Source of the DNA: Candidatus Bathyarchaeia archaeon | Lineage (GTDB): Archaea; Thermoproteota; Bathyarchaeia; TCS64 | NCBI GenBank assembly: GCA_050014495.1 | Contig: JBEKDF010000053.1 | Span: forward strand, 1-12,880 | Length of the DNA stretch: 12,880 nucleotides | Direction of reading: 5' to 3' | Shown here: piece by piece, positions 1-12,778 of the stretch | How the letters are laid out: every line of letters begins with the position of its first letter | Numbering within the stretch: the first letter of the stretch is position 1 | Translations under genes and position numbers: made by a program | Notes under the pieces: generated by a model | What the model was told of the DNA's origin: nothing | What the model saw: only the letters and a program-made list of their open reading frames with translations | The model's database searches: none

Positions 1-132
1 TATGCTGAGGAAAAGCTCATGTGTCAACATATTACAGTTGACGAATTAAACATTTTGGGTAGACTTCAGAGATATTAATTACCATGTCACATGCACGGCG
101 CACGCCACAGAGATCTTGTGCTCGTGTGGTGT

Positions 133-163
133 TTGGGATTGGGTTTGGCCATAGTCTTATCCC
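133..163 (+). repeat. Array repeat, G-rich variant B copy 1 (TTGGGATTGGGTTTGGCC-ATAGTCTTATCCC)
   Basis: Matches 1248-1280 and shares the ATAGYCTTATCC core (151-162) with the main repeat family. Confidence 0.7.
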
Positions 164-233: not shown

Positions 234-1124
234 CTATCCTGACAACGGAATCACCGGTGAATCTTTACCAATGATCAGCACACCCGGAGGAACATCACCA
301 CGGATAGTCTCCAGCAGGATATTCACATTTTCATTAGAAACGGTAGCCATACCTACGCGAATCCTTCCATCACCCGCGTAGCCAACTGAATACAGGATAA
401 GACCCTTGCCTCGCAGTTCTTCGAGACGCATTGAAATTTTGCATCCCCAAGTCTCGATCAACCATTCCGGAATATTATACACCGACTTGGCGCGATAAGA
501 CCAGATCGTCTCGTTTGTGATCTCAGGCTTACCCTCCCACAGAGCCTTATAAGTGGACTTTACGCCCATTGCATTATCGATCTCGTTAAGAAATTGATCG
601 AGTTTCATGCCTTTATACTGCGGCCAGTAAGGAGCACTAGGTGCAACTGTCCCCGCAACAACTTTGAATCTGCCCCAAGGTCCACTTGACGTGCCATAAG
701 GGGTAGATAATCCGCTGCCCTCACCACCAGTTAGAAATAGAACGAATTCCTCGCCTACTTTCATGAGGGGGTCACCATCGGCCTCCACTCTTGTGCCATA
801 TTCGTCTTTACCAATCTGCTGTACAATCACGTTGAGAATCAGCATTCCATCCCCTGACCCTTTAGCTATTTTGAGGGTTTTGAAACGGAAGTTTTTGTAT
901 GGGATCCCGGTGTTATTACCAAATGATTGGATGGACTCGACTCTGCCATAGATTATTACTTTTGAGGAGTTCACGAGTTCCGGGAAGTTGGAGTAGCCAA
1001 CCCAATCAACTTGAATTTTATCGACTCTTGGTGAGGGGGTAAAAGAGTAGGCTAGGGATGCAAGCAGAGTGATGGCGATTATGATGGTGGTGGTTATCGT
1101 TATTAATTGGGTTAGTTTGGGCAT
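234..1124 (-). CDS. Hypothetical secreted or membrane-anchored protein
   Basis: 296-aa ORF with an N-terminal hydrophobic segment (ITITTTIIIAITLLASLAY) followed by a soluble domain. It lies between the two variant-B repeats. Confidence 0.8.
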   Translation of the reverse strand: MPKLTQLITITTTIIIAITLLASLAYSFTPSPRVDKIQVDWVGYSNFPELVNSSKVIIYGRVESIQSFGNNTGIPYKNFRFKTLKIAKGSGDGMLILNVIVQQIGKDEYGTRVEADGDPLMKVGEEFVLFLTGGEGSGLSTPYGTSSGPWGRFKVVAGTVAPSAPYWPQYKGMKLDQFLNEIDNAMGVKSTYKALWEGKPEITNETIWSYRAKSVYNIPEWLIETWGCKISMRLEELRGKGLILYSVGYAGDGRIRVGMATVSNENVNILLETIRGDVPPGVLIIGKDSPVIPLSG

Positions 1125-1247: not shown

Positions 1248-1280
1248 TTGGGTTTGGGTTTGGGGCCATAGCCTTATCCC
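1248..1280 (+). repeat. Array repeat, G-rich variant B copy 2 (TTGGGTTTGGGTTTGGGGCC-ATAGCCTTATCCC)
   Basis: Matches 133-163; core ATAGCCTTATCC at 1268-1279. Confidence 0.7.
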
Positions 1281-1334
1281 ACACACACACTTTCCCTAAC
1301 GAACTCATTTTTTCTATATCTGCACGCATCTTAA

Positions 1335-1384
1335 CTCAATAGCCTTATCCTCCGTTCCACCCCGATTCTTCTCCAGTGATTCTA
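1335..1384 (+). repeat. Main array repeat A copy 1
   Basis: CTCAATAGCCTTATCCTCCGTTCCACCCCGATTCTTCTCCAGTGATTCTA, directly upstream of the TTG-GTC-GAT-GCA-CAG start. Confidence 0.9.
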
Positions 1385-1978
1385 TTGGTCGATGCACAGA
1401 CAGTTGGCGTATTGGTGACTGCGACCAGCGTGACGATAGCAGCGATATACTACGTTCTGAACATCAGGATAAGCCAGAGGAACCAGGAACTCATGCTCAA
1501 GTCTCAGGAGACAAGCGTCAAGACGCAGGAGCTCGCTCTGAAGTCGCAGCAGCAAAACCTTGAGACCCGGCAGGTGCAGCTCTTCATGAGCGTCTACCAG
1601 AGATTCGAGGAACCCGACTTCCAGAACGCGTTCTGGGAACAAATGTCATGGCAGATAAAGGACTACGATGACTACGTCGCCAAATACGGTGAGAAGGCGA
1701 ACCCTGAGGCTTGGAGGAAGTATGCGATGGTGAGTACTTTCTTCGAGGGCTTAGGGGTCCTTGTGAAGAGGGGCTTCATAGATGCTGCGATCGTGGACGA
1801 CCTGATGTCGATGTATATAATTGGCTATTGGCAGAAGTATGAATCCATCAACATTGGGTTGCGGAAGTCGATGAACACCCCCACCGCTGCGGAGTACTTT
1901 GAGTATCTCTATGGTGTGGTTTATGGGATTTGGAGGCAGCAGCATCCGGGGTATGAGAATGTGACCTTGTCTCAATAG
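1385..1978 (+). CDS. Single-TM 'MVDAQT' family protein, paralog 1 (DUF4760-like)
   Basis: Paralog of 10828 and 12050, sharing VDAQTxGVLVTAxSVTxAAxYY, D(Y/F)xD(Y/F)xxKY, G-x4-G-x-I and FEYL. The ORF track starts at GTG 1376, but TTG 1385 aligns with the paralogs' ATG. The stop TAG lies inside the next repeat. Family name is from recall. Confidence 0.85.
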   Translation: MVDAQTVGVLVTATSVTIAAIYYVLNIRISQRNQELMLKSQETSVKTQELALKSQQQNLETRQVQLFMSVYQRFEEPDFQNAFWEQMSWQIKDYDDYVAKYGEKANPEAWRKYAMVSTFFEGLGVLVKRGFIDAAIVDDLMSMYIIGYWQKYESINIGLRKSMNTPTAAEYFEYLYGVVYGIWRQQHPGYENVTLSQ

Positions 1979-2045
1979 CCTTATCCTCACTTCCACCTGA
2001 CTCTTACCAGTGAGATTGTAATGGTTGATTCACAGACGATTGGAG
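1971..2045 (+). repeat. Main array repeat A copy 2, extending into a truncated MVDSQTIG stub
   Basis: CTCAATAGCCTTATCCTCACTTCCACCTGACTCTTACCAGTGAGATTGTA-ATGGTTGATTCACAGACGATTGGAG, then unrelated sequence. Confidence 0.9.
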
Positions 2046-2122
2046 CGCTTTCGTGGTATCAGGTAAGCATATTTTTAATCATTCCTACGAACATCATTGA
2101 AGAGAGTAGATGTCTGGCATAA
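2021..2122 (+). pseudogene. Truncated 5' stub of an MVDAQT-family gene fused to unrelated sequence (MVDSQTIGALSWYQVSIFLIIPTNIIEESRCLA*)
   Basis: The first 8 codons match the paralog N-terminus, and similarity ends abruptly at about 2045. Confidence 0.7.
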
Positions 2123-2525
2123 ATAGAAAGATCAAAGGCTGCGGTTTTCACCACGTCTCCATTAGTATAAAAAACTTGGATAAGACAAGAAAGTTCTACT
2201 CTGAGGGACTTGGCTTTGTTGAGAGATTCTCAGGGGCAAGGAACCAAAGAGGACCATCCTTATAGACACTGGTGATGAAAATTACTTCGAAATCTCTCAA
2301 GGAGATCCCAGTCATTCGTATGGGGAGGGCATTTTTCGTCACATAGCCTTGAGGGTAGATGACTGCAAGATGGCTGTTGAATTAGCGAGGAGTGCAGGGG
2401 CTGAGGTTACTGTGGAGCCTAGGGATGTTACACTATCCAGTGATCCGCTTATTCGGATCCGTATCGCATTCTTTAAGGGTCCTGATGATGAGTTAATCGA
2501 ACTTTTTGAAAACGATCAAACTTGA
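2110..2525 (+). pseudogene. VOC/glyoxalase family protein with a 1-nt frameshift
   Basis: The ATG 2110 frame reads MSGINRKIKGCGFHHVSISIKNLDKTRKFYSEGLGF. A shifted frame from about 2235 reads GKEPKRTILIDTGDENYFEI...HIALRVDD...RIAFFKGPDDELIELFENDQT* (TGA 2523-2525). Inserting one T after 2232 restores F-S-W-G-K. Absent from the ORF track. Confidence 0.85.
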
Positions 2526-2620
2526 TACGCTCTGTCACAATAAGATCCTATGGTATAAACTTCATCTAAAGTAAACATACGCAGAAGGATTGAAGAAGGC
2601 TTCATCAACACAGTTTAACC

Positions 2621-3061
2621 ATGAAGACCATCGAATCGAGAGAACAACCGACACTTATCGCCATAGGCCTCGGACCAGGGGAGAAGCTCCTGGAGTCGAT
2701 AAACGAGGCTATAAAATCCAACGAAATTAGGGACGGGGTCGTCATTTCAGGCATAGGGACGTTGAAGCGCTGCCGCATGCACTACGTTAATACAATGTCT
2801 TTCCCAGCAGAGAACTGCTTCTATGTCGTTGAGGAGCCTCTAGAGATAGGATCAATCAGCGGGATCATAGCTGATTACGCGGCCCACCTTCACATGACTG
2901 TGGGGTGTAGGGATCAGCGGACCTACGCTGGGCACCTCGAGGAGGGCTGTGAAGTTCTTTATCTGGCGGAGGTTCTCGTCATGAAGTTATGTGATATGGG
3001 GCTTGAGAGGCGGATTGATCCGCAGTACGGTGTCTCTCTTTTAAGAGAGCGCGTTCGGTGA
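2621..3061 (+). CDS. PPC/DUF296 domain putative DNA-binding protein
   Basis: Motifs LxPGEKLLESI, SGIGTL, LEIxSISG, HLH, AGHL and LAEV. Confidence 0.9.
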   Translation: MKTIESREQPTLIAIGLGPGEKLLESINEAIKSNEIRDGVVISGIGTLKRCRMHYVNTMSFPAENCFYVVEEPLEIGSISGIIADYAAHLHMTVGCRDQRTYAGHLEEGCEVLYLAEVLVMKLCDMGLERRIDPQYGVSLLRERVR

Positions 3062-3108
3062 ACAAGGGTCACTCTGATCTAATTTGCGTACACGGCGAAA
3101 AAGTCCCC

Positions 3109-3159
3109 TTCAATAGCCTTATCCTCACTTCCACCTGATACTTAACCTGAGAGGATTAT
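3109..3159 (+). repeat. Main array repeat A copy 3 (left boundary of the island)
   Basis: TTCAATAGCCTTATCCTCACTTCCACCTGATACTTAACCTGAGAGGATTAT; similarity stops before the ATG position. Confidence 0.9.
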
Positions 3160-3260
3160 ATAGGGCTGGAAACAGGAATTTCCGAGTGGATTTTTAGGAA
3201 AAAGTTTGAGAACGTGACTGGCAGTTCGTTGCCTCGTTGCATCATAGTTATTAAAATTGT

Positions 3261-4064
3261 ATGTATATGATAATCATGCTTCATGATACTCTCCGACCTC
3301 ACCTTCAAAAACCAAAACCAACAAAAGGGTATAAGACAACGAAACCCTGGAATCCTTTCGTTGGATGTGGGTTTGATTGCACCTACTGCAAGCCGAGTTT
3401 CGGGGCATTGTTAAAGTGGGTTGGGGGAATGCATCATTGTACAAGATGCCAGGAATATTTGCCTCACGAGCACCCAGAGAGGCTGAGCCGAATACCCTCA
3501 GATAAAGCCATTTTCGTCTGCGAGGATGGCGACATCTCATTCGCCAAGCCTGATTATATGGCGAAGGTGTTTCAGGCAATCTCTGATCCTAAATTTGCGG
3601 GTAGGACCTGGTTTGTGCAGAGTAAGAACCCCAAGTGTCTGGAGCAATATTTAGGCCTCATTCCTAGGAATACTTACCTAGTCACAACGCTTGAAACGAA
3701 TAGAGATCAAGGATACGGTGAAATTTCGAAAGCACCCCTACCTTCTGCTCGATTCAAGGACTTTTCCCATCTCGACTGGGAGAAGAAGATTGTAACTGTA
3801 GAACCAGTAATGGATTTTGATCTTGAAGTACTAAGGGATTGGATAGTCTCAATTAGTCCTGCAACTGTCTTCATTGGTTACAATAGTAAACCCGATAAGG
3901 TCTCTATCCCAGAGCCCGATAAAATGAAGCTCCTGTGCTTGATTGATGAGTTGGAGAAACGCGATATCCATGTTTTAACAAAGGAGATGCGGGATTGTAA
4001 ATTCGTTAAAAAGGCGTATAAAGATTTTTTAGAATTAAAAAACTATACTATCGGTAATCTTTAA
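3261..4064 (+). CDS. DUF5131 / phage Gp37-Gp68-like protein with radical-SAM-like CxxxCxxC
   Basis: WNPFVGCGFDCTYC motif, DGDISF, QSKNP, TLETN, VTVEP and FIGY. The true start may be a later ATG (for example 3276). Confidence 0.75.
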   Translation: MYMIIMLHDTLRPHLQKPKPTKGYKTTKPWNPFVGCGFDCTYCKPSFGALLKWVGGMHHCTRCQEYLPHEHPERLSRIPSDKAIFVCEDGDISFAKPDYMAKVFQAISDPKFAGRTWFVQSKNPKCLEQYLGLIPRNTYLVTTLETNRDQGYGEISKAPLPSARFKDFSHLDWEKKIVTVEPVMDFDLEVLRDWIVSISPATVFIGYNSKPDKVSIPEPDKMKLLCLIDELEKRDIHVLTKEMRDCKFVKKAYKDFLELKNYTIGNL

Positions 4065-4120
4065 TTTTTTCTCCAACCGTGCGGTTTATATATAGTTGAT
4101 AGGCAACCACTCCGAGATTT

Positions 4121-4537
4121 ATGATAAAAAAATCTTTAACTAAAAACAAGGCCGCAAGCCTTGAGGCACTATTCTGTGTAAAGGGCGTGGTTGAAACAGA
4201 AACGCTCAAGGACATGAATGATAAGGACATAGATACAATCGTTAATGCAATCAACAAATTTGGGTATGATACAGACGGATACACAATAATAGACGCATTA
4301 ATCTATCAAATGCTGGACAGACAACTGGGGCCGTATGTTTCAAGTCGAGAGCTATTGAAAGACATAACGCCACCACACATGCAGGTGAGACATAACCATA
4401 TACGTTCAGGTTTCACAGGCATGAATGATAGGGATTTACATGAAATAATATATGACACATATTCGTCCCTGTTGGAAAGTTACCATGAAAATCAAGCGAT
4501 CTTTGAAAAGAATAAGGAGTATCGAGTAGGTGATTAA
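4121..4537 (+). CDS. Hypothetical protein
   Basis: 138-aa ORF, first of a run of overlapping or abutting ORFs (4121-5489). Confidence 0.7.
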   Translation: MIKKSLTKNKAASLEALFCVKGVVETETLKDMNDKDIDTIVNAINKFGYDTDGYTIIDALIYQMLDRQLGPYVSSRELLKDITPPHMQVRHNHIRSGFTGMNDRDLHEIIYDTYSSLLESYHENQAIFEKNKEYRVGD

Positions 4538-4934
4538 AATGAAACATAACTTCGATAAAGCGCCGGAGCTAACACCCGATCCAATATTCGTGGCTGTGGG
4601 GAATACCGGATCTAATACAGCGGCGGTTATGAAAAAATATCAAATTCTCAAGAATGATACGAAGTTTGCAGATGAATGGCTCAAATCGTGTGAGATATTC
4701 AACGGCCTACCAAACCGTTGTGGTATTATACAAAATTCATTAGAACATATATCTCCACCCAACGTATTGGGCGCTATAATTGCTTCTATGCTAATATTTC
4801 ATTTGGTGCGATTGGACATATCTGTTGATAGCGTCGGAGAAAAAGATCTTAATAATATAATAAACGATCTACTCGCTAACTGCAAATATGTATACGAAGA
4901 CAGCGGTGATATTCTCTCAAAGGGGTTGGGTTGA
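4530..4934 (+). CDS. Hypothetical protein, paralog of 4931..5260
   Basis: Shares MKKYxILxND..DEW..S and IASxLIFHL with the next ORF; overlaps its neighbours. GGTGA just before ATG 4539 suggests that as an alternative start. Confidence 0.75.
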   Translation: MIKMKHNFDKAPELTPDPIFVAVGNTGSNTAAVMKKYQILKNDTKFADEWLKSCEIFNGLPNRCGIIQNSLEHISPPNVLGAIIASMLIFHLVRLDISVDSVGEKDLNNIINDLLANCKYVYEDSGDILSKGLG

Positions 4935-5260
4935 ATATGGTATTGCGGCCTATTCTGGTTTCACAGGCAGATATGGTGGTTCTAATGAAAAAATACAATA
5001 TTCTTGGTAATGATATGCGCCTAACAGACGAATGGTTCAACTCCAATCAAGAGTTGAATAGCTGTCCGGATTATAATGAAATATATTGCCGTGTTCAAAC
5101 TATCGGATTGGACGAGACACATACTCTGATAGCATCGACACTAATATTTCATTTGAATAAAATGGGTGTAAAAAAAATTCGACAGGCCCATCTTAGAGCA
5201 ATTATTGAAATGCTGATATACAATATGAATTGTAACAAAAAGTTGGACTATGTGACATGA
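4931..5260 (+). CDS. Hypothetical protein, paralog of 4530..4934
   Basis: 4-nt TTGA overlap with the upstream ORF and the shared motifs noted above. Confidence 0.75.
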   Translation: MNMVLRPILVSQADMVVLMKKYNILGNDMRLTDEWFNSNQELNSCPDYNEIYCRVQTIGLDETHTLIASTLIFHLNKMGVKKIRQAHLRAIIEMLIYNMNCNKKLDYVT

Positions 5261-5279
5261 AAATGAACAAGAAGAATTA

Positions 5280-5489
5280 TTGCGTGAAAAAAAACTAAAG
5301 AAAGCCATTATATGGTATGTAAAAGCCTATCCATTTGTGACATCCGAAGAAGAAGAAAACTACCAACATGACATAGATGAGTTGTACAAACTACACGAAA
5401 AAGAGAAAGAGATTGAACGCCTAAAGGTGAAAAGGCTAACACAAAAGAAAACCCGAAAAAGTAATTACCCCTTACCCTATGAGCTTTGA
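5280..5489 (+). CDS. Small basic coiled-coil hypothetical protein
   Basis: 69-aa ORF, co-oriented at the end of the operon-like run, Lys/Glu-rich. Confidence 0.55.
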   Translation: MREKKLKKAIIWYVKAYPFVTSEEEENYQHDIDELYKLHEKEKEIERLKVKRLTQKKTRKSNYPLPYEL

Positions 5490-5502
5490 AAAGTATGCTT
5501 CC

Positions 5503-5551
5503 AGAACCACCCTGCGGCACAGAAACACACAGGTCTATGTTGCAGGGTTCT
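5503..5551 (+). other. Imperfect inverted repeat / hairpin
   Basis: ACCCTGCGGCACAGA (5509-5523), a 10-nt loop and TCTATGTTGCAGGGT (5534-5548) form a 15-position stem with two G.T wobbles and one mismatch. Confidence 0.6.
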
Positions 5552-5782
5552 CTAGTAAAGGAGAAGTGGGAATATATCAGGAATTTAACAATATAAAGTG
5601 TAGTTTATGATAATTAAACAAGATTTCATAAATTGTGGCTTTTTCACGGAAACAAAGGACTATCATTATACTATTAATACCCTGTCATACAAACAATCGC
5701 ATACTCATAAACATAGGTTATATATCGATATATTTATGAGACTTACTATGAATCATAAATTTTGCGTAACATATATTAATTA

Positions 5783-6517
5783 TTGGTTGATATATACCGC
5801 ATAGCAGGTATTGTGTCTTTGAATCATAGAAGTGTAGAGACTTTTCGTTTGGATGTAGGCGGTTGGAATGGCTGGAAGTGGTTTGAAGGAATCTACAGCA
5901 AGTGTGAAAATGTAGAGCAGAAAATGATACTGGTTGGGCTTCTAAAGACAGGCAGCAGGTCAAATGAACTTAACAAATTGACCAGGGATATGGTAGATTT
6001 GGATACTTATAACAATGCCATTTTAATAAAGAACCAACCACTAGAGAAGCAGAAGAAGGCTATTCAGTTAGTGGATAATAATGGCAATTATATGTATGAT
6101 GATAACAGAAGGCTATACAGGTTTGAGCATGTAGATGGTTGGAGAACATACTTATTTCCAAAGAAGGAAAGATACTCCCACTTGTTCACAAGACTAGTTG
6201 AACTTTGTGATGACCCAAAGGAACTGGTGTTTCCCTTTAGTTACAGCCAAATTTATTACAGGATATGCACCATAGGGATGGAATTGCCCGAAGGTGTGCC
6301 CAAGAAGGATTGGGCTTACCATTTGGACAAGGGTTGTGGGCTTTTTCCCCATGAACTTAGGAGTATCCGCGCTTGCCAACTTCTGAGGGATTACCGTTAC
6401 AACAACCAGCAGCTACGCAAATTCTTCGGTTGGGCCGAAGATAGTCCCATGCCCGACCACTACATGGAACTTACACCAGATGACCTAATTCCTTCACCAG
6501 AGTTAATGCCTAAATAG
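5783..6517 (+). CDS. Tyrosine recombinase/integrase (catalytic domain only)
   Basis: Catalytic motifs in order: TGSRSNEL (R), candidate K in EKQKK, PHELR (HxxR), FFGW (W at the H/W position) and DHY (nucleophile Y). Confidence 0.88.
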   Translation: MVDIYRIAGIVSLNHRSVETFRLDVGGWNGWKWFEGIYSKCENVEQKMILVGLLKTGSRSNELNKLTRDMVDLDTYNNAILIKNQPLEKQKKAIQLVDNNGNYMYDDNRRLYRFEHVDGWRTYLFPKKERYSHLFTRLVELCDDPKELVFPFSYSQIYYRICTIGMELPEGVPKKDWAYHLDKGCGLFPHELRSIRACQLLRDYRYNNQQLRKFFGWAEDSPMPDHYMELTPDDLIPSPELMPK

Positions 6518-6643
6518 AGAGTGTGCGCAACAGGCTGAAATGAGTGCGCATGTAGCTAGAGCGTAGCGTGCAACCTTGAGAACCTCCAAATTATTAATTA
6601 AACTAATCAAATTTAACAGATCTATCCAATTGAGCATGAATTT

Positions 6644-6931
6644 CTAGTATTCCCTCCGGAAGTCGTGGTAGACCCCATCCCGAACCTGGCCGATGTAATC
6701 ACCATCCTCGATGACCCATAGAATCTTGTGGCCATCTTTAGCCATCTTCCCCCAGACGGAGTTCTTCTCAGGGTTCTGCTCCAGGAACGTGTAGCCTTCG
6801 ACTATTAGGAACCTCAGGCCCTGCCTGGAGGTGCGCCTCACCTTATGAGTTATGTTCTCAATATTGGCGGTCTTCTGTTCGCTGAAGGTTGCCTCGTATG
6901 CCTTGATCGCTACATCCTCCAGGTTCTTCAA
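6644..6931 (-). CDS. Hypothetical protein
   Basis: 95-aa ORF with a protein-like EQNPxKxSxWxxxAxxG segment and host-like GC-rich codons. Confidence 0.7.
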   Translation of the reverse strand: MKNLEDVAIKAYEATFSEQKTANIENITHKVRRTSRQGLRFLIVEGYTFLEQNPEKNSVWGKMAKDGHKILWVIEDGDYIGQVRDGVYHDFRREY

Positions 6932-7057
6932 AATGCTTCAATGAAAATGATTGATCTTATTTCATAAAACCTCTTGCTTACCCAGTAGTTTCATTCTCCC
7001 GCCCGTCCTCCCGATTTATGCGACTTCGTTTTTATGCGTGACTCGTAGGGCTACCCT

Positions 7058-7864
7058 GTGCTTACGCCAGAGCAGATCGGGAGGTTCTACCGTCAGTGGA
7101 GGCCCTCGGATGTTCATCGGAGCTGGCCCCAGCTCTGGAATAAGCATTATAGAATAAGGGTCCAGGATGACATTTTCATCAAGCTAAACAAGCATCGCAG
7201 CCGACTCGGTTTCGATTCCCTGCGTAGGCTCTGCCTGGAGTATGCTCCCGGGAACATCTACATGAGTGTCCTCAATTGGATGATGCCTGAGAGGGTAGGC
7301 GATAAGAGGGCCTCAGTGGGGGCCTATCCAATAGGCGGTGAATATGTTATCGACATCGATTCATATCTTAATTATAAGAAACACAATCACCACACTGAGG
7401 ATGGAGTCTGCGAGGGCTGTCTAGAGGGTTCCAAGCAGCTCACCGAGAGGTTTATTGACGAGGTTAAGCAGAATTACAGCGACTTAAGGATCGTATTCAG
7501 TGGCAAATCTGGCTTTCATATCCACGTCCTGGACTTCGAGGTTAGGGATTGGGTGAGATATGATGAGAGGTACCCGCTGAGAAGCCACGCTGCGGCCCGG
7601 TTCATGTACTCGACCATCCTGAATGATTCGGTGAAGGGCTTCGATAGGCACCACTTTATACTAAGCTCAGATGTACTAAGGGTCATTACCTTCCCCGAGT
7701 CGCTGAACGGTGAGACGGGGCTCGTCTGCTCCCACCTCGGCGGTGCCATAGAGTTCAACAGCCTGAAGGTCTACGAGATCCTAGAAGGCGCGAAGTCTGC
7801 AAAAGGTCTAACTTCAGGATTCAATTTTGTAAGTGCAGATAAAATACGAAAGATAATTATTTAA
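7058..7864 (+). CDS. Archaeo-eukaryotic primase (PriS-like primase/polymerase)
   Basis: AEP motif I EYVIDID, motif II FSGKSGFHIHV, SDVLRVITFPESLN resembling motif III (D..R...P.SL), and a putative Zn site H..H....C..C. Confidence 0.85.
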   Translation: MLTPEQIGRFYRQWRPSDVHRSWPQLWNKHYRIRVQDDIFIKLNKHRSRLGFDSLRRLCLEYAPGNIYMSVLNWMMPERVGDKRASVGAYPIGGEYVIDIDSYLNYKKHNHHTEDGVCEGCLEGSKQLTERFIDEVKQNYSDLRIVFSGKSGFHIHVLDFEVRDWVRYDERYPLRSHAAARFMYSTILNDSVKGFDRHHFILSSDVLRVITFPESLNGETGLVCSHLGGAIEFNSLKVYEILEGAKSAKGLTSGFNFVSADKIRKIII

Positions 7865-8393
7865 CTATAAAAAATGATAACTTTTTGATTATTAAGCCAA
7901 TAAGGATGGATCTAATTATTATCATATAAGGAAAATTCATAAAAAATATAGTTAATAGAATAATAGAATAGATGGAAGCTTCTAATAACTCTGATAATTT
8001 ATATGCGGTCTTATTGGCAAGTTGCATTTGTGAATAAGCAGTTCTCCAAGGCAACTCTTGTTCGAGTAAGGTTTTCATACTAATTGTTCTTGATTTAATA
8101 ATTACCTTAAGATTATCAGTTGCCACCAAACCTCTAATAATGAATAAAATTAAGCTGAAGAAAAATAAAGAATTAAAAAACCCAAGAGAATCAATTAAAC
8201 TAAAACCTAAAATTAATGCAACTTCAAGAATAATATCTTGCGTGTATTTTCCCTGTGCAAGCTGACTTCTAACTCTTGTATTCCGTTCTAGTTCGATCCC
8301 ACCCTCTCTTGTAAAAATGTAAGTAGTATAGAAATCTGCTAAAGCTCCTACACTTATAAGAATTAAACCTAAAGTAAAAATGGCTAAGTCCAA
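7857..8393 (-). CDS. Multi-pass membrane protein (DUF5658-like motif)
   Basis: Several hydrophobic helices and an ADFYTTY...GxExxxN motif; very AT-rich; converges on and overlaps the primase stop. Confidence 0.65.
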   Translation of the reverse strand: MDLAIFTLGLILISVGALADFYTTYIFTREGGIELERNTRVRSQLAQGKYTQDIILEVALILGFSLIDSLGFFNSLFFFSLILFIIRGLVATDNLKVIIKSRTISMKTLLEQELPWRTAYSQMQLANKTAYKLSELLEASIYSIILLTIFFMNFPYMIIIRSILIGLIIKKLSFFIVK

Positions 8394-8450
8394 CTAACCT
8401 TCATCGTCCATATTACCCTTTGCATTAGTTACCAGATATAATAATTAAGG

Positions 8451-8553
8451 CAACATTCACTCGTCTGCCTCCTACTCAGATGTGCTTAGGTTTATTAAAA
8501 ATTGAGAATGAATCCAATTGCTTGAGGTCCAATCATTGAATGTTTTAATCACC
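8451..8553 (+). repeat. Repeat family C copy 1 (degenerate upstream region plus 5' stub of the 9574 gene)
   Basis: 8451-8493 matches 9491-9533 at 37/43 positions. Weaker similarity continues through TGAGGTCC...CATTGA and TTG-AAT-GTT-TTA-ATC-ACC versus TTG-AGT-ATC-ATG-GTC-ACA. Confidence 0.8.
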
Positions 8554-8606
8554 TGCCTGCGCTGTATCCTTAGATGCTCTAATCTTGTTGGAACAAGAGC
8601 GAGAAA

Positions 8607-9419
8607 TCAAAAAATTTTAGTCGCGCCTTGGAAAGTTGGATCATACCTTGGTTCTGTATGTTGAACGATGTCACTTCCTCTTTTTTGAGTCCATCGATCT
8701 CCTTCTCTTTCAGTAATTATCCAAGTTTCACTTGAGCCCAAAAATTCAGCTTGAGTGACCCAGTTAAACTGATTTTTACTCAATATAGCCGTTTGAATTA
8801 AACCACCAACATATCTCGAGACTTGTGGTACTATTATGTCATTACTTAAAACTACAGAACAATAATTTAGCCAATCCAACGGGTTGTCATTTAACACTTT
8901 TCCAGATTTACAATATTCATCAAGTTTCTGATGGAATAAGTTTCTTGTGGATTCATTTGCCCCAATAGCATATAACCCATCAACTATTTCTGCATGAAAA
9001 GGAAAGGGTGAATCGTTTCTTAACAAATATAGGTCCGGACTATTTTCATAACGTCCCCATATCCCAATTAAAAAATATAAAGGGGAATTCTCGGTTCGTC
9101 CCTTCTGTAATTGTGAATATTTTTCTCGAGCAATATTTTGAAGATTATCTATTTTTTCAAATGTACTTTTATTAGAATTAACTTGCAGATAATTCTTAAA
9201 TGATTTAATACATTCTAGAGCCCCATGCACCCATCCAGCATATACTAGCCCTACGTCATTTGATAATGAAAATATTTTAGGTCCGACATCGTTTATTTCA
9301 TTTGTAACATTATCAGTAAATCGACTATCAGTCAAAAAAATTATACCTTGGGGTCCGGGTCCTCCAGGTGCTGTCTTAAAAATCCCCCAGGGATATTTTC
9401 CAGCAATAGATAATGTCAT
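8607..9419 (-). CDS. Proteasome beta-subunit-like Ntn hydrolase
   Basis: ATG 9419 gives Met-Thr (Thr1 nucleophile), followed by TDSR, PKI, YAG, YAIG and VGG in the order expected for the proteasome/HslV fold. The ORF track start is TTG 9431. Confidence 0.75.
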   Translation of the reverse strand: MTLSIAGKYPWGIFKTAPGGPGPQGIIFLTDSRFTDNVTNEINDVGPKIFSLSNDVGLVYAGWVHGALECIKSFKNYLQVNSNKSTFEKIDNLQNIAREKYSQLQKGRTENSPLYFLIGIWGRYENSPDLYLLRNDSPFPFHAEIVDGLYAIGANESTRNLFHQKLDEYCKSGKVLNDNPLDWLNYCSVVLSNDIIVPQVSRYVGGLIQTAILSKNQFNWVTQAEFLGSSETWIITEREGDRWTQKRGSDIVQHTEPRYDPTFQGATKIF

Positions 9420-9490
9420 TATTTTTGACAATGCTATTTTGAAATTTATTGTTTGTGAACTATTTTTACATTCTTAGAAGGTTATCTAGT

Positions 9491-9591
9491 CGACATTCAC
9501 TCTACTGTCTCCTACTCGGATGTGCCTAGGTTTTAAGAGGTTGAGCGAGCCGCCACTCGATGAGGTCCCTGCATTGAGTATCATGGTCACA
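9491..9591 (+). repeat. Repeat family C copy 2 (upstream region and start of the 9574 gene)
   Basis: Direct repeat of 8451-8553. Confidence 0.8.
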
Positions 9592-9951
9592 TTGAGCCAG
9601 AGTCAAGTAGAGAAGCTGCTTAGCATTATCGAAGAGAGTGAGAAGTGCCTACTAGAAGCCCGAAGCATCCTCAGCATGAATGCCTCAACCAGAACAGTCC
9701 AATCACCTACTAATCAAACGACTCCAAGTATAGAGTACATCAAGTGGAGGATCAAGGGCGGCAGCTCAGCGGGTCCCAATGATGACTTCGCGTTCGACTT
9801 CACACAGGACAGGGATGGGAATGTGTCGCGAGAGAAAGCACCGATTATCGATTACATCAAGCAGAAGGGCCCATTCCAAGTTGAGGGTTATGAAGTCAAT
9901 CTAAGCAAGGATGGCAAGTTCCTCCAGCGGAAGAAGGTGGGAACCACTTGA
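9574..9951 (+). CDS. Hypothetical protein (N-terminal helix, low-complexity linker, C-terminal small domain)
   Basis: In frame with ORF 9520..9951. A GAGGT RBS favours a start at TTG 9574 or ATG 9583. Confidence 0.75.
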   Translation: MSIMVTLSQSQVEKLLSIIEESEKCLLEARSILSMNASTRTVQSPTNQTTPSIEYIKWRIKGGSSAGPNDDFAFDFTQDRDGNVSREKAPIIDYIKQKGPFQVEGYEVNLSKDGKFLQRKKVGTT

Positions 9952-10229
9952 TTCAGGAACTTGAAGCCCTGGACTTCGTCGGCGAGATGAGTCAAGCGAC
10001 CGGCGTAAAAGTCGCAATCGGTGTGAATACCTACATCGAGGAATCGGACCCGTTCTCCGAGTATGTGATCCTCATAGACCCCTCCAGTTTTAGTGATGAG
10101 GATGAGTCGAAGCTGGAGGAGTACTCTACGAGGAGAGGAGTAAGAATAGTCGAATCTTGGAATGATTGGGGTAGGTTCCTGAAGATCATGAAGCTGAGGA
10201 CCGTGTTCGTCTCCGCATTCTCACCCTGA
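9948..10229 (+). CDS. Acidic hypothetical protein
   Basis: 93 aa, TTGA overlap with the upstream ORF; its stop is at the start of the 66-bp repeat. Confidence 0.7.
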   Translation: MIQELEALDFVGEMSQATGVKVAIGVNTYIEESDPFSEYVILIDPSSFSDEDESKLEEYSTRRGVRIVESWNDWGRFLKIMKLRTVFVSAFSP

Positions 10230-10291
10230 GCCCCTTAATGAAGGGACGGTGATATTGGCGCATAAGGACGTGGAGCGGAGCGGGGGTGAGG
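10226..10291 (+). repeat. Repeat family D copy 1 (66 bp)
   Basis: CTGAGCCCCTTAATGAAGGGACGGTGATATTGGCGCATAAGGACGTGGAGCGGAGCGGGGGTGAGG; 63/66 identical to 10618-10683; internal CCCTT-N4-AAGGG hairpin. Confidence 0.9.
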
Positions 10292-10324
10292 CAATGAGGC
10301 TCCCGACGTGATTCTTGGTGAAAA

Positions 10325-10621
10325 ATGATGAAAGACTTCGAGGAAGCATCTAGGAAGGTTTGGGAAGATAGTCTGTGGCGGTTTGAGGGTGAAGCGATGA
10401 AGGCATTATCGGACCCGGGGGACCGTCAAGCGCTCACGGATATGATAAACGAGTGGAAGCGATTGGGTGAGTCTACCCTGTTGAAGCTCTCCCAGAATCA
10501 GCCGTGGAATATGCCTCTATACTTCGCCCTCTCCGCTGCAATACTCAACAGGAGAGAGATAATCAGGCTCAGAAAGAGTCTGGTTACCAGCGGGGAAAAC
10601 ATGGCTTCACTCCTACACTGA
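10325..10621 (+). CDS. Hypothetical helical protein
   Basis: 98 aa with a GGTGA RBS upstream; its stop is at the start of the second 66-bp repeat. Confidence 0.75.
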   Translation: MMKDFEEASRKVWEDSLWRFEGEAMKALSDPGDRQALTDMINEWKRLGESTLLKLSQNQPWNMPLYFALSAAILNRREIIRLRKSLVTSGENMASLLH

Positions 10622-10683
10622 GCCCCTTGATGAAGGGACGGTGATATTGGCGCATAAGGACATGGGGCGGAGCGGGGGTGAGG
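10618..10683 (+). repeat. Repeat family D copy 2 (66 bp)
   Basis: Three mismatches to 10226-10291. Confidence 0.9.
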
Positions 10684-10779
10684 TGTCTAGGTATAGGGAT
10701 AGGTACCTGTCGAGAATGGGTATTAGGAAGTCCCTGGGTCTTGGGGCCTCGCCTTTTTATGACGGTGGCTTCAAGGCTT

Positions 10780-10827
10780 CTCAATAGTCTTATCCAAACT
10801 TCAACCTGACTCTAACCCAGTGATTCT
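10780..10827 (+). repeat. Main array repeat A copy 4
   Basis: CTCAATAGTCTTATCCAAACTTCAACCTGACTCTAACCCAGTGATTCT, then ATG 10828. Confidence 0.9.
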
Positions 10828-11349
10828 ATGGTTGATGCGCAGACCATTGGAGTATTAGTTACAGCAGCGAGTGTGACGGTAGCTGCTATCTATTACATAG
10901 TTAATCTGAGGGAGACCACCAAAAACAGGCGAGCCACCCTGACAAACAACATCATACAACCATTCACCACGAAGGAGTTCGCTAAGGACTGGCTAGCCCT
11001 CGTGAGCATGAGGTGGGATGGCTTCGAGGACTTCCAGAAAAAGTATGACTCAAGGGTCAACCCCGAGAACTTCGCCCTGAGAATATCCTTCTGGAACCTC
11101 TGCGACTCAATCGGATACCAGTATAGGAGTGGCTTAATCGACATAGGAACCGTATACAACGTCGCCGGCATCTGGATTGCTGACGCGTGGTTCATGTTTG
11201 GACCGGTAATTAGGGAGTATCGGAAATTGGATTACCCTAAGAACATATATGAGAACTTCGAGTATCTAGCTGATGTTCTCGGTAAGATGATTGGACAAAA
11301 GGATTCTGATTGGGATAAGAAGATGGAGCAGGTTGTCTTAACTCATTAG
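10828..11349 (+). CDS. Single-TM 'MVDAQT' family protein, paralog 2 (DUF4760-like)
   Basis: MVDAQTIGVLVTAASVTVAAIYY N-terminus, WDGFEDFQKKY, GLID and FEYL; ends 5 nt before the next repeat. Confidence 0.88.
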   Translation: MVDAQTIGVLVTAASVTVAAIYYIVNLRETTKNRRATLTNNIIQPFTTKEFAKDWLALVSMRWDGFEDFQKKYDSRVNPENFALRISFWNLCDSIGYQYRSGLIDIGTVYNVAGIWIADAWFMFGPVIREYRKLDYPKNIYENFEYLADVLGKMIGQKDSDWDKKMEQVVLTH

Positions 11350-11354
11350 GTAAC

Positions 11355-11392
11355 CTCAATAGCCTTATCCTCACTTCCACCTGACTCTAATC
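11355..11392 (+). repeat. Main array repeat A copy 5
   Basis: CTCAATAGCCTTATCCTCACTTCCACCTGACTCTAATC, truncated before CAGTGA and abutting the nitroreductase stop. Confidence 0.92.
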
Positions 11393-11396
11393 TCTT

Positions 11397-11954
11397 TCAT
11401 TTTATCCATTTTAATATGTTAGGCTTGTTCCTCTTACCCGATCCCTGCTTGTTCTTTGGGTAGCCAAGAATCAGAGACACCATCACATCGTACCCCTCGG
11501 GTACCCCGACCTTACTCATAACCTCCGGTTTACTCCCCACAAGCACGTCGATCCAACCCATGTAGCAGGTCCCCAGACCCAGCTCGTACGCCTTCAGGGA
11601 CATGTTCTGCTCGGCGAGCGCGCTGTCAATCAGATTAGAGTGACTGAATGACTTGTCAGTCTCCGCGCATATCAGGATCAGTACCGGAGCATCATAGCAA
11701 ATTATGTCTTCGCTGGTCTCAAACCGCTTAGCGAACAGGGGAAACGCCTCGCTCACGGCTTTCTTGGCTTCATCGGAGACGTATCTGATGGTGTCCCTGT
11801 TCTCAATTATGAAGAAGCGCCACGGTTGCCGACCCATCGCCGTCGCCGCCCAGACGCCGGCTTCGAGTATGGCTTCGATCTTCTCCTTCGGGACGGGTTC
11901 GGCTGTGTAGGCTCTTACGCTTCTCCTACCCTTGATGCATGTCTCAAGTTCCAT
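11397..11954 (-). CDS. Nitroreductase family protein
   Basis: IKGRRSVRAY, A-T-AMGRQPWRF, APVLI, D...A..N..LxAxELGLGTCY and LGYP. ATG 11954 is preferred over GTG 11972. Confidence 0.93.
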   Translation of the reverse strand: MELETCIKGRRSVRAYTAEPVPKEKIEAILEAGVWAATAMGRQPWRFFIIENRDTIRYVSDEAKKAVSEAFPLFAKRFETSEDIICYDAPVLILICAETDKSFSHSNLIDSALAEQNMSLKAYELGLGTCYMGWIDVLVGSKPEVMSKVGVPEGYDVMVSLILGYPKNKQGSGKRNKPNILKWIK

Positions 11955-12001
11955 GTGTAGATGTCGGTACACTACTTTTATTCAAAGTTTGAGTTGTGTT
12001 C

Positions 12002-12049
12002 CTCAATAGCCTTATCCTCACTCCTACCTGACTCTAACCCAGTGATTCT
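12002..12049 (+). repeat. Main array repeat A copy 6
   Basis: CTCAATAGCCTTATCCTCACTCCTACCTGACTCTAACCCAGTGATTCT, then ATG 12050. Confidence 0.92.
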
Positions 12050-12598
12050 ATGGTTGATGCGCAGACCATTGGAGTATTAGTTACAGCAACAAGCGTGACT
12101 GTGGCAGCGGTCTACTACATTATGACCCTGAGGACCCAGCGGATGAACATGAAGAACACCCTGGAAACGCGGAGAATAGGAGTAGTCCAGAACATGATGA
12201 CTGCCCTTAGCAGCTTTGAAGGGCAGAAAGCTGGAATAGAAACGGCTAACTTCGAGTGGAAGGACTACGAGGACTTCGAGAGGAAGTATGGAACAGACAA
12301 TGATGTGGACGCCGCTGCTAAGAGGTTCATGTTGTGGCAATCCTGGAATGGTATGGGCTTGATGCTCCGCAGGGGGATGATCGAAGCCGAGGATCTCTAT
12401 GACATAGGAGGGTCAATGGTGGTTATGCACTGGAAAAAGTGGGAGCCAATAGTTCAAGAGATTAGGAGGAGGTATTGGGGTTCGGATTATCTTAGAGACT
12501 TTGAGTACCTGAATGATGAGATGATGAAGATTAAGATAATGAGGGATTCCTCGTACAAGGTACCTGAGACCTTTTTCAAGTATGTACCAGATAAGTGA
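12050..12598 (+). CDS. Single-TM 'MVDAQT' family protein, paralog 3 (DUF4760-like)
   Basis: MVDAQTIGVLVTATSVTVAAVYY, WKDYEDFERKYG, GMI and DFEYL. Confidence 0.88.
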   Translation: MVDAQTIGVLVTATSVTVAAVYYIMTLRTQRMNMKNTLETRRIGVVQNMMTALSSFEGQKAGIETANFEWKDYEDFERKYGTDNDVDAAAKRFMLWQSWNGMGLMLRRGMIEAEDLYDIGGSMVVMHWKKWEPIVQEIRRRYWGSDYLRDFEYLNDEMMKIKIMRDSSYKVPETFFKYVPDK

Positions 12599-12606
12599 CC
12601 GCATCC

Positions 12607-12684
12607 TTACAAAGTCTTATCCTCACTTCCACCTGACTCTAATCAGTGATTCTATGGTCGATGCGCAGACGATTGGAGTGTTAG
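12607..12684 (+). repeat. Main array repeat A copy 7, extending into a truncated MVDAQTIGVL stub
   Basis: TTACAAAGTCTTATCCTCACTTCCACCTGACTCTAATCAGTGATTCT-ATGGTCGATGCGCAGACGATTGGAGTGTTAG. Confidence 0.9.
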
Positions 12685-12740
12685 CATTGCAATTCGTGAC
12701 AATTCGATATTTCAGTTTGGCAGCAGCACCAGGGCTATGA
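12654..12740 (+). pseudogene. Truncated MVDAQT-family stub (MVDAQTIGVLALQFVTIRYFSLAAAPGL*)
   Basis: The first 10 codons match the paralogs, then unrelated sequence and a stop at 12738-12740. Confidence 0.7.
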
Positions 12741-12754
12741 CAAGATGTTTTTAT

Positions 12755-12778
12755 CTCAATAGCCTTATCCTCAGTTCA
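12755..12778 (+). repeat. Main array repeat A copy 8 (shortest)
   Basis: CTCAATAGCCTTATCCTCAGTTCA, then diverges. Confidence 0.85.

Follow-up and report, generated by a model that had tools for sequence, protein, structure and literature searches.

A repeat heading DUF4760 genes in a Candidatus Bathyarchaeia genome is a likely promoter module, with a core that is a likely target of a PolB-less Cas1 transposon

The window analysed here, a stretch of 12,880 nucleotides from a Candidatus Bathyarchaeia archaeon (assembly GCA_050014495.1, contig JBEKDF010000053.1), carries eight copies of repeat A that seem to begin at one point and to end at many, raising the question of whether a fixed left edge and a ragged right edge record the capture of foreign DNA at a defined site. 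A preliminary description of positions 1335..12778 had suggested that one junction is made at a defined site and the other illegitimately. All eight copies were found at the positions it gave, seven of them starting with (C/T)TCAATAG and the degenerate copy 12607 reading TTACAAAG. The end points were also reproduced: similarity ends after about 24 nt (copy 12755), 38 nt (11355), 8 codons (1971) and 10 codons (12607), and at 36–50 nt in copy 3109, where the final 14 nt match weakly. Copies 1335, 10780 and 12002 run into full genes, previously labelled MVDAQT, of the membrane-protein family DUF4760.

On the forward strand, the copy at 1335..1384 (core 1337-1350, promoter-proximal arm, leader with GTGA) heads DUF4760 gene 1 (1385..1978), whose stop codon TAG lies inside the next core (1973-1986), that of a stub with 8 codons (1971..2045); the junction of this stub is bridged by contigs from two other runs. 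A glyoxalase-like gene broken into two ORFs (2110..2525) and a PCC-domain gene unit (2580..3138, ORF 2621-3061) follow, then a stub without a start codon (3109..3158, core 3111-3124). Between two repeats lies a 7.4-kb island (3261..10621) that includes low-GC ORFs, a divergent tyrosine recombinase (5783-6517), a PriS-like primase (7058-7864) and a proteasome-like ORF (8607-9431). The copy at 10780..10827 (core 10782-10795, AAAC arm variant) heads DUF4760 gene 2 (10828..11349), and the 38-nt stub at 11355..11392 (core 11357-11370) is followed by a nitroreductase gene on the reverse strand (11397..11954), convergent cargo with its own upstream region, for which a donor search of 17 genus genomes found nothing at E 1e-40. 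The forward-strand copy at 12002..12049 (core 12004-12017) heads DUF4760 gene 3 (12050..12598), with a predicted N-terminal helix (4-54) and then six helices. Behind it stand a stub with 10 codons (12607..12718) ending in about 35 nt of foreign sequence that also occurs behind a stub on contig C24 and in the related genome G002, a 3′ remnant of a DUF4760 paralog (12719..12754, like 1935-1970) left of the "fixed" edge, and the 24-nt stub at 12755..12778. The contig overlaps contig C75 by 122 nt, and the array continues there.

Across this genome, which is 96% complete, repeat A occurs in about 200 co-oriented copies at the head of DUF4760 genes or stubs, and the family has more than 100 paralog matches. 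The suggestion that the repeat plus its gene is the ancestral unit is supported. The sequence AGCCTTATCC was counted 125 times, with 8.2 expected, and a 26-nt motif matched 193 sites (up to 6 mismatches allowed), across which information is near zero left of position -4, counting the A of ATAG as position 1. Neighbouring repeats within 3 kb are co-oriented in 125 of 131 cases, and the TAG inside the core serves as the stop codon of 23 of 71 upstream genes. The repeat had no Rfam or tRNA match. Among 84 DUF4760 proteins, median identity is 43% over the first 30 columns versus 24% over the remainder; the family had no PADLOC or PHROG match, and a structural search of PDB and BFVD with Foldseek gave nothing at E 0.001. 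The Atlas gave a putAbiC cluster at TM 0.64, which is below the Atlas bar and serves as a lead only.

Judged from its sequence, the repeat is likely the promoter and start module of the expanded family. A BRE-TATA-type motif, learned from 134 divergent intergenic sequences on contigs C1-C14, has its best match in register in 58 of 78 intact copies, 47–50 nt before the start codon, the modal motif-to-start bins of other genes in the genome being 35–49 nt. The score is modest, with a median of 4.4 bits, and 5.4 bits is reached by 12% of random 36-mers. The DUF4760 genes of another genome (G021) are headed by a related leader, and neither the core nor a match to the Cas1 of the present genome was found there.

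The left edge itself did not behave as a uniform cut. About 36 nt to its left are common to copies 1971 and 12755 (81% over 59 nt), so that the edge at these two copies is not a fresh junction. Likewise, for 106 left flanks there is a homolog with the same site behind it, and these joins were thus inherited. In 56 cases with a site-less homolog of the left flank, a comparison that does not tell which lineage changed, the divergence lies 0–118 nt upstream (median about 41); 14 of these points fall within 6 nt, most of them at degenerate or shifted sites. At sites without an upstream gene, a DUF4760 3′ remnant is kept in 16 of 114, with a detection power of about 50%. The new left joins of arm-less copies are as dispersed as the right ends, the very pattern that the preliminary description had named as speaking against its reading, which is therefore not supported for these copies. 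A defined left cut is supported for the copies joined to the end of a Cas1 element at the core, 15 of 203 in this genome; a freshly made junction at every left edge is not, the edge of the remaining copies being inherited.

The 14-bp core is likely the insertion target of a PolB-less Cas1 transposon, and the promoter's upstream limit and the left boundary of the target duplication probably coincide at the sharp left edge. The core is also found with (CCCAAA)n or (CA)n arms, located exactly at -3 and +12/13, and such arms enclose cas1 genes in relatives. An arm-bearing core lies within 2.5 kb of 7 of the 10 Cas1-family matches in this genome, the background for such proximity being 6% over the whole genome and 28% around arrays. 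The related genome G016 holds three full cas1 genes, each between a C/A arm and a G/T arm, and one of these elements (L075) sits in repeat A, with the repeat-A arm as its outer flank. Under strict settings, perfect 13–14-bp direct repeats with inverted repeats were found at 5 of 19 cas1 metagenome loci versus 0 of 300 control windows. Terminal inverted repeats of at least 12 nt are present in L084, L087, L107, L122 and L123, and those of the present genome are short and often degenerate. Arms occur at 20 of 44 loci with a Cas1 of at least 68% identity versus 1 of 12 below 68% (p=0.02). A G/T arm is next after a C/A arm in 17 of 41 cases and after an A arm in 24 of 232, a pairing inflated by the clustering of arm sites. 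An intact cas1 gene is present on contig C80 (1669-2697, reverse strand). The Cas1 protein, of 342 aa, matches TIGR00287 at 162 bits with the E, H and E catalytic residues aligned, and by phmmer its best solved relative is 4n06 (87 bits), above the casposase structure 6opm (52 bits). No exact three-repeat CRISPR array was found in the genome, no cas2 among the ORFs read next to cas1, and no PolB in 35 ORFs from six elements, which gave weak AEP-like matches instead. Cas1 of this type, or pieces of it, is held by seven of nine genus genomes with at least four repeats and by two of nine with at most one, these genomes being related and fragmented.

Two further cores with different arms, at 149-162 and 1266-1279, lie in the window outside the span of the preliminary description and probably mark junctions with element ends, at 151 and 1268 (all on the forward strand unless stated). 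A G/T arm (131..148) would be the right end, a short terminal inverted repeat, of an upstream Cas1-type element; this arm type also ends Cas1 elements in relatives. The core at 149..162, one mismatch from that at 1266..1279 and with a degenerate left arm (CCTAAAT), may be the left target-duplication copy of a candidate non-autonomous element, with a GGGTTT-type arm (1250..1265) as its right terminal inverted repeat. Its cargo is a 296-aa ORF with a hydrophobic N-terminus (234..1124, reverse strand), which had no Pfam, PHROG, PADLOC or NCBIfam match. The core at 1266..1279, flanked by two element ends, would be a tandem-insertion junction, and the (CA)n arm at 1280..1290 the left end of the next element, whose right end was not found within the window. 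The layout of two ends around one core recurs in L093 beside a cas1 gene.

Some observations count against the core as a Cas1 target. Core similarity in 17 arm-to-arm pairs of the genus is not above random (2.06 versus 2.13 mismatches, p=0.45), identical cores occur in 3 of the 17 (p=0.10), and arm types mismatch in several pairs. Among the C/A arms, 24 of 41 are without an adjacent partner, and some elements (L080, L127) have inverted cores. Since the targets of the five clean elements score 0.1–8.2 for the promoter motif, promoter targeting amounts to an overlap in this genus. A left arm is absent from 188 of the 203 A-arm copies, which makes these DUF4760 units without inverted-repeat ends on both sides; bare cores without a right arm are rare. 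A spare landing site directly behind the C/A arm was seen within 120 nt in 2 of 17 cases, plus L093, and is not general. Reading the G/T and C/A tracts as terminators or as scars of untemplated repair was rejected, since these tracts end Cas1 elements and are inherited between genomes.

The exchange of units at the repeat is borne out, and the swaps are compatible with the homology-anchored recombination that the preliminary description had offered as one option. In all six copy pairs that share the right side the left flanks are unrelated; of 19 pairs that share the left side, 17 either have different right sides or are unreadable on that side. Rare variants of the arm stay with the left flank as far as +16/+26, and across 191 copies linkage exists only between positions at most 2 nt apart, a loss that could come from recurrent mutation instead. 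Gene units have different neighbours across copies and species, the switch falling inside the shared module, and PCC and DUF units common to several species end inside repeats. The PCC unit matches a G016 locus at 90% identity over a span that opens 40 nt upstream of the start codon and reaches into the following repeat, with different neighbours on either side, and the DUF4760 gene 1 unit recurs in G002 (87%) and G016 (80%), again among other neighbours. On the right, similarity stops within the first 75 nt in 87 of 102 truncated copies, a crowding not expected from uniform deletion. The ragged right ends resemble deletions, and GC-run motifs occur at 24 of 102 right junctions versus 27 of 304 background windows (p=4e-4). 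Cargo is co-oriented in 54 cases and convergent in 39. The core is kept equally in stubs and intact copies (0.12 versus 0.11 mismatches at positions 6-12), an equality partly forced by the search rule. Contigs of 8 of 23 public runs bridge several junctions, and the joints are all short-sided, which the repeat explains.

The best joint explanation, which we hold to be probable though far from assured, is a promoter and start module containing a Cas1-target core, with reshuffled arm-less units and stubs formed by deletion. As read from these sequences, Cas1 would insert elements and their non-autonomous derivatives at the core, creating the only truly defined junctions. Arm-less units would be multiplied and rearranged through homologous exchange or gene conversion at any point of the promoter-leader-transmembrane module of about 130 bp. 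Stubs would arise from deletions and illegitimate joins, some at GC-run scars, in events through which the gene may be lost and cargo that has a promoter of its own may enter in either orientation.

Cas1 might instead build the arrays, through half-site joining of arm-less DNA at the left edge of the core and illegitimate repair of the other end within the unit before it, of which a stub would remain. It would be one-ended capture as first suggested, with Cas1 as the enzyme. The coincidence of the left edge of conservation with that of the target duplication would fit, as would the core TAG ending upstream genes, the 98 of 114 sites without a detectable 3′ remnant and the excess of Cas1 in repeat-rich genomes, and a family 1 casposase is described as integrating oligonucleotides without a terminal motif (PMC8464041). 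The dispersed left divergence, the inherited joins, the rarity of bare cores and the presence in G021, a genome with no Cas1 of this type, of DUF4760 paralogs behind a related leader speak against it, and we regard it as unlikely. Equally unlikely is its fuller form, a domesticated casposase that cuts at the left border of the DUF4760 promoter box and attaches whatever DNA end arrives there, with illegitimate repair of the far end, giving a CRISPR-like array with the promoter as repeat and genes as spacers and diversifying a membrane-anchored, possibly antiviral family. Plain tandem duplication and decay of the promoter-gene unit, with a similar palindrome in the Cas1 elements by coincidence and without a role, would account for the promoter register and the dispersed left joins, and paralog-specific 3′ ends would give a sharp left edge without cutting. 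However, adjacent copies resemble each other hardly more than random ones do (mean percentile 0.49, 0.52 and 0.60), units are found again beside new neighbours on other contigs and in other species, and for the 15 copies and the full G016 element the join with the repeat lies exactly at the core, so that this reading is already weakened and rather improbable.

The mainly co-oriented, cassette-like swapped units and the several tyrosine recombinases near the arrays, one of them in the window, could suggest an integron-like system in which such an enzyme acts at one defined point of the repeat and shuffles gene cassettes. This is very improbable: attC-like folding was rejected, with no stable single-strand hairpin on either strand (5 folds, 3 copies; z +0.6 to +1.8), as was a defined crossover in the module, no block marking one being seen in the linkage test; the repeat gave no Rfam match, cargo lies in both orientations, and the window recombinase had no match at E 1e-15 in 17 genus genomes. 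The 13 tyrosine recombinases of the genome are of unrelated types. Just as remote is a fixed edge made by rolling-circle, retro-type or IS110 bridge-RNA capture. IS110 targets have a central CT, as the core does, and the TCAA and TTAT present here resemble IS200/IS605 cut sites. Nevertheless, no reverse transcriptase, Y1 transposase or resolvase match was found in the genome, and each of its three IS110 copies has ends of its own that show no relation to the repeat. The earlier suggestion of rolling-circle or retro capture thus lacks a candidate among the enzymes searched (Y1 and reverse transcriptase, with IS91-type Y2 outside the search). Stubs as variable-length target duplications of the next copy, which retro-type capture could leave, were rejected (mean percentile 0.49, n=58).

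Among known systems, one close likeness is to the "Family 5" casposases, described in the parts consulted as a solo Cas1 close to subtype I-A Cas1, with catalytic residues kept, mostly no PolB, and terminal inverted repeats (Salgado et al. 2022, PMC9755687). Those parts mention no target duplication and do not name Bathyarchaeia; compared by description only, the elements here differ in that they end with simple tracts, (CCCAAA)n or (CA)n, and in a target overlapping the promoter of a gene family, which is present in about 200 copies. Casposons of families 1–2, as in Ca. Nitrosopumilus koreensis, Aciduliprofundum boonei and Methanosarcina mazei, share a Cas1 integrase, 13–15-bp target duplications (PMC6614799, PMC8464041), tandem insertions at one target and solo ends, but encode PolB and have longer repeats; their targets are tRNA genes, gene 3′ ends or intergenic, with no multi-copy promoter mentioned in the portions seen (also PMC4779613, PMC6977970). 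The arm-bounded elements have the solo Cas1 homolog with catalytic residues and the terminal inverted repeats of casposons; the 13–15-bp duplication appears in the five of 19 cas1 loci and not above random in the 17 genus pairs, and the family B DNA polymerase of families 1–4 is absent. Integron arrays and CALINs, including archaeal ones, similarly place co-oriented repeats between single genes of shuffled order, and that study does not name Bathyarchaeia (Ghaly et al. 2022, PMC9668308). In contrast, the present repeat has neither an attC bottom-strand hairpin nor one fixed crossover, heads genes as a likely promoter, and has cargo in both orientations. Vibrio T6SS immunity arrays and Rhs-type loci are likewise arrays of diverse paralogs with a conserved 5′ anchor module, exchanged without a specific site, and homology-facilitated illegitimate recombination is described at such constant-5′/variable-3′ loci (Kirchberger et al. 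2017, PMC5361080, as far as seen); orphan 3′ parts pile up there, whereas short 5′ stubs do so here, and those loci involve no transposon target. Subscription papers aside, no paper was found linking DUF4760 promoter arrays with Cas1 transposons, and nothing on integron gene cassettes in Bathyarchaeia.

Arrays of this kind can show a fixed left edge without site-specific capture. An integron-like array without a known recombinase is here tied to a concrete enzyme and target, and the 342-aa Cas1, the 13–14-bp target and the very short simple-sequence ends form a testable substrate set from a scarcely described group of PolB-less casposons that is close to CRISPR Cas1. If the unlikely reading of array building by Cas1 were true, a domesticated casposase would write gene-sized arrays. 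A Cas1 target multiplied about 200-fold as the promoter of a variable family bears on the path from target duplications to CRISPR repeats and, as a multi-copy gene-family promoter, on how archaea shuffle accessory genes.

The repeat array is a real feature of this genome. On re-examination of the sequence, all eight window copies of repeat A, the ~50-nt repeat heading DUF4760 genes or truncated stubs, had the left start and the right ends reported in the preliminary description. The window is the whole of contig C53, which belongs to a 3.1-Mb genome in 92 contigs (G000) and is joined to contig C75 by a 122-nt overlap; the joins at 1279-1339, 2045, 3140-8900, and 11673-12056 are bridged by contigs of other runs, and therefore they are not assembly artefacts. 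The MVDAQT gene is DUF4760, with 124 profile matches in the genome (fragments counted), 84 of them near full length. With the A of ATAG taken as position 1, the 193 genomic sites of the 26-nt motif (at most six mismatches) carry approximately zero information left of -4 and high information across -2 to +26. Non-redundant copies numbered 198, comprising 79 with an intact gene, 102 truncated in the interior of a contig, and 17 that reach a contig end, and 125 of 131 neighbouring pairs share the same orientation. Within the genus, 12 of 17 other genomes carry the 23-nt motif, which was absent from all 23 more distant genomes searched; in the family, DUF4760 is present in 14 of 24. In the DUF4760 model (pLDDT 87), six helices follow a long N-terminal one; conservation is concentrated in the first 30 columns (43%), and the remainder is variable (24%). 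No match was found in the defence library or among solved structures; the putAbiC cluster was reached at TM 0.64, a predicted likeness that may serve as a lead only.

The motif YKRRNAANGYTTWWA, trained on 134 divergent intergenic sequences with the repeat excluded, lies mostly 35-49 nt ahead of start codons and is presumably a BRE-TATA element of the kind seen in archaeal promoters. Of 78 intact copies, 58 have its best match beginning at -4, 47-50 nt ahead of the start codon, so that the left edge of conservation is the left edge of the motif; scores are modest (median 4.4 bits, with 5.4 reached by 12% of random 36-mers). DUF4760 genes in a genome of another genus (G021) carry a related leader, with no exact core (the 14-bp centre of the repeat) and no match to the Cas1 family of G000, and the predicted promoter role is therefore independent of the transposon. 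Some cores carry arms, a G/T tract on the left or a C/A tract on the right. On contig C34, a 115-bp inverted repeat (96.5%) at 18066 (+) and 21548 (+) places the same arm, together with the promoter and start of a small-gene family, once right and once left of the core.

The fixed left edge had been proposed to be a junction made at a defined site. It is probably a fresh junction in 15 arm-joined copies, whereas sequence comparison indicates that it is not one in the plain copies, whose joins are dispersed. Among 280 plain copies from G000 and the retrieved loci, 106 had a left-flank homolog that also leads into the site, and 56 had a homolog without it. The supposed tightness of the left breakpoints was not borne out: in these 56 cases the two sequences begin to differ 0-118 nt upstream (median ~41), in a comparison that covered 120 nt upstream and does not distinguish which lineage changed. 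Fourteen diverge within 6 nt, most of which proved on reading to be degenerate or shifted sites. Of 114 sites that lack an upstream gene, 16 retain a DUF4760 3' remnant, at ~50% power and with two to three false calls expected; window copy 12755 is one such site, with the remnant to its left. Long fragments were about equally frequent on the two sides, with five 3' remnants and five partial genes.

Gene units could be exchanged by homology anywhere across the ~130-bp constant module. In six pairs a shared right flank is combined with unrelated left flanks; among 19 pairs with a common left flank, the right is partly shared in one, cut off by a contig edge in two, and different in the others. 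Genes 92-96% identical may have differing leaders and N-termini, rare arm variants follow the left flank as far as +16 or +26, and linkage in 191 copies was seen only at positions at most 2 nt apart, bar one weak -1/+29 value. A single crossover point as the exchange mode does not fit these flank, arm-variant, and linkage data, and by the tests run the array is unlikely to be an integron. Unit 1327-1998 recurs at 87% identity in G002 and 80% in G016, two other genomes, with other neighbours in each and, in G016, a C/A arm following at +13; the PCC unit at 2580-3138 is 90% identical in G016, where its neighbours differ. Homology exchange likewise anchored in a constant module has been proposed for Vibrio immunity arrays (PMC5361080).

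Truncated copies stop between +19 and +163, with 87 of 102 within 75 nt, versus one of 40 intact genes called that short by the same method in a control sampling every second intact gene. Sixty retain the core region only, 31 the leader and start, and 11 reach the conserved three-box module. The ORF after a stub is co-oriented in 54 cases and convergent in 39, and only ~12 begin at the stub's own start position. Stubs as copies of the next repeat were rejected by comparing each with the following copy. GC-run motifs occur at 24 of 102 right junctions versus 27 of 304 background windows. Because stub ends bunch close to the promoter, capture of DNA by Cas1 stays in play as a less likely reading.

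Other repeats were also observed. GCGCGCGC occurs 1024 times in G000 versus 60 expected, and truncates copies of IS110, cas1, and DUF4760. A 46-nt direct repeat (85%) at 8448-8493 and 9488-9533 lies on either side of a proteasome-like ORF; the latter copy begins ORF 9520-9951 and the former is its stub, which repeats the stub-cargo-intact layout for a different gene. A 76-nt direct repeat (91%) at 10216-10291 and 10608-10683 flanks ORF 10325-10621, and a related stretch lies near a tyrosine recombinase on contig C40. A gene-less conserved module of 80-100 nt, with promoter-like boxes ~26 nt apart, links two repeat copies in several species (full copies, for example, at L019 5981-5881 (-) and L011 9762-9681 (-); a remnant at window 2546-2580). 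The window also holds a 7.4-kb island with a PriS-like primase (7058-7864) and a divergent tyrosine recombinase (5783-6517) that had no match at E 1e-15 in the 17 genus genomes.

The core also appears beside Cas1 genes. All three full-length cas1 genes examined in G016 are enclosed by a C/A arm on one side and a G/T arm on the other, the cores being in direct orientation (3.4, 6.1, and 4.7 kb), and the outer flank of the 6.1-kb element is a repeat-A arm. Among 56 further loci (54 metagenome, two genome; short contigs counted as misses, some loci duplicates or from the same population as G000), arms were found in 20 of 44 with Cas1 of at least 68% identity versus one of 12 below. In a scan blind to the core motif, five of the 19 loci with enough flank (L084, L087, L107, L122, L123) showed cas1 surrounded by a perfect 13-bp direct repeat beside a 12-bp inverted repeat, as did none of 300 control windows. 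The L084 duplication, CCATAATTTTATCC, aligns to -2..+12 of the repeat. Common to these elements are a P-loop-like ORF, an HTH protein, and an AEP-like ORF, and no PolB was present among 35 ORFs scanned from Cas1 elements. The L084 element encloses a CAP12/Pycsar TIR-domain gene (7783-8919), which an ORF adjoining cas1 in G000 (C80, 670-1497) resembles by eye. Cas1 elements in L080 (cores at 124 and ~5940) and L127 have inverted cores, which may reflect recombination of one element with another or a pair of independent half-site joins.

G000 itself has ~57 arm-bearing core sites, in which a G/T tract runs up to -3, a C/A tract sets in at +12/13, or both; those in the window are at 151 and 1268. 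Its cores comprise 188 plain A, 15 G/T-plus-A, 19 G/T-plus-C/A, 18 C/A only, and five G/T only. Six Pfam Cas1 matches belong to one family, a single one being intact, and no exact CRISPR-like array was found in G000. Seven of ten tblastn matches to this family (six of nine contigs) are no more than 2.5 kb away from an arm-bearing core, compared with 6% for the genome at large and 28% for array neighbourhoods. Cores of the 17 arm-to-arm pairs of the genus are no more alike than random pairs (p=0.45) and 24 of 41 C/A arms have no adjacent partner; these results, together with the inverted cores, count against the core as a Cas1 target and indicate that most copies here are old or rearranged. The array end on C75, near 118 (-), carries a degenerate G/T arm and a core identical to window 1266-1279; if this arm pairs with the (CA)n arm at 1280, which is speculative, a single element would enclose ~18.6 kb of the array. 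On C18, an ORF (47139-48041) situated upstream of a truncated cas1 resembles by eye a virus major capsid protein.

The 13-bp duplication falls within the 13-15 bp given for characterised casposases (PMC6614799, PMC8464041, PMC6977970). Casposons pile up in tandem and leave solo ends (PMC4779613), and the proposed casposase 'family 5', near type I-A Cas1, is mostly PolB-less, like the elements here (PMC9755687). The literature searched held no link between DUF4760 promoter arrays and casposons, and the supplements of casposon papers may list these elements. The DUF4760 gene units as casposons themselves were rejected; the array works like a homology-shuffled gene array, the likely promoter of which probably doubles as the target of a casposon-like element.
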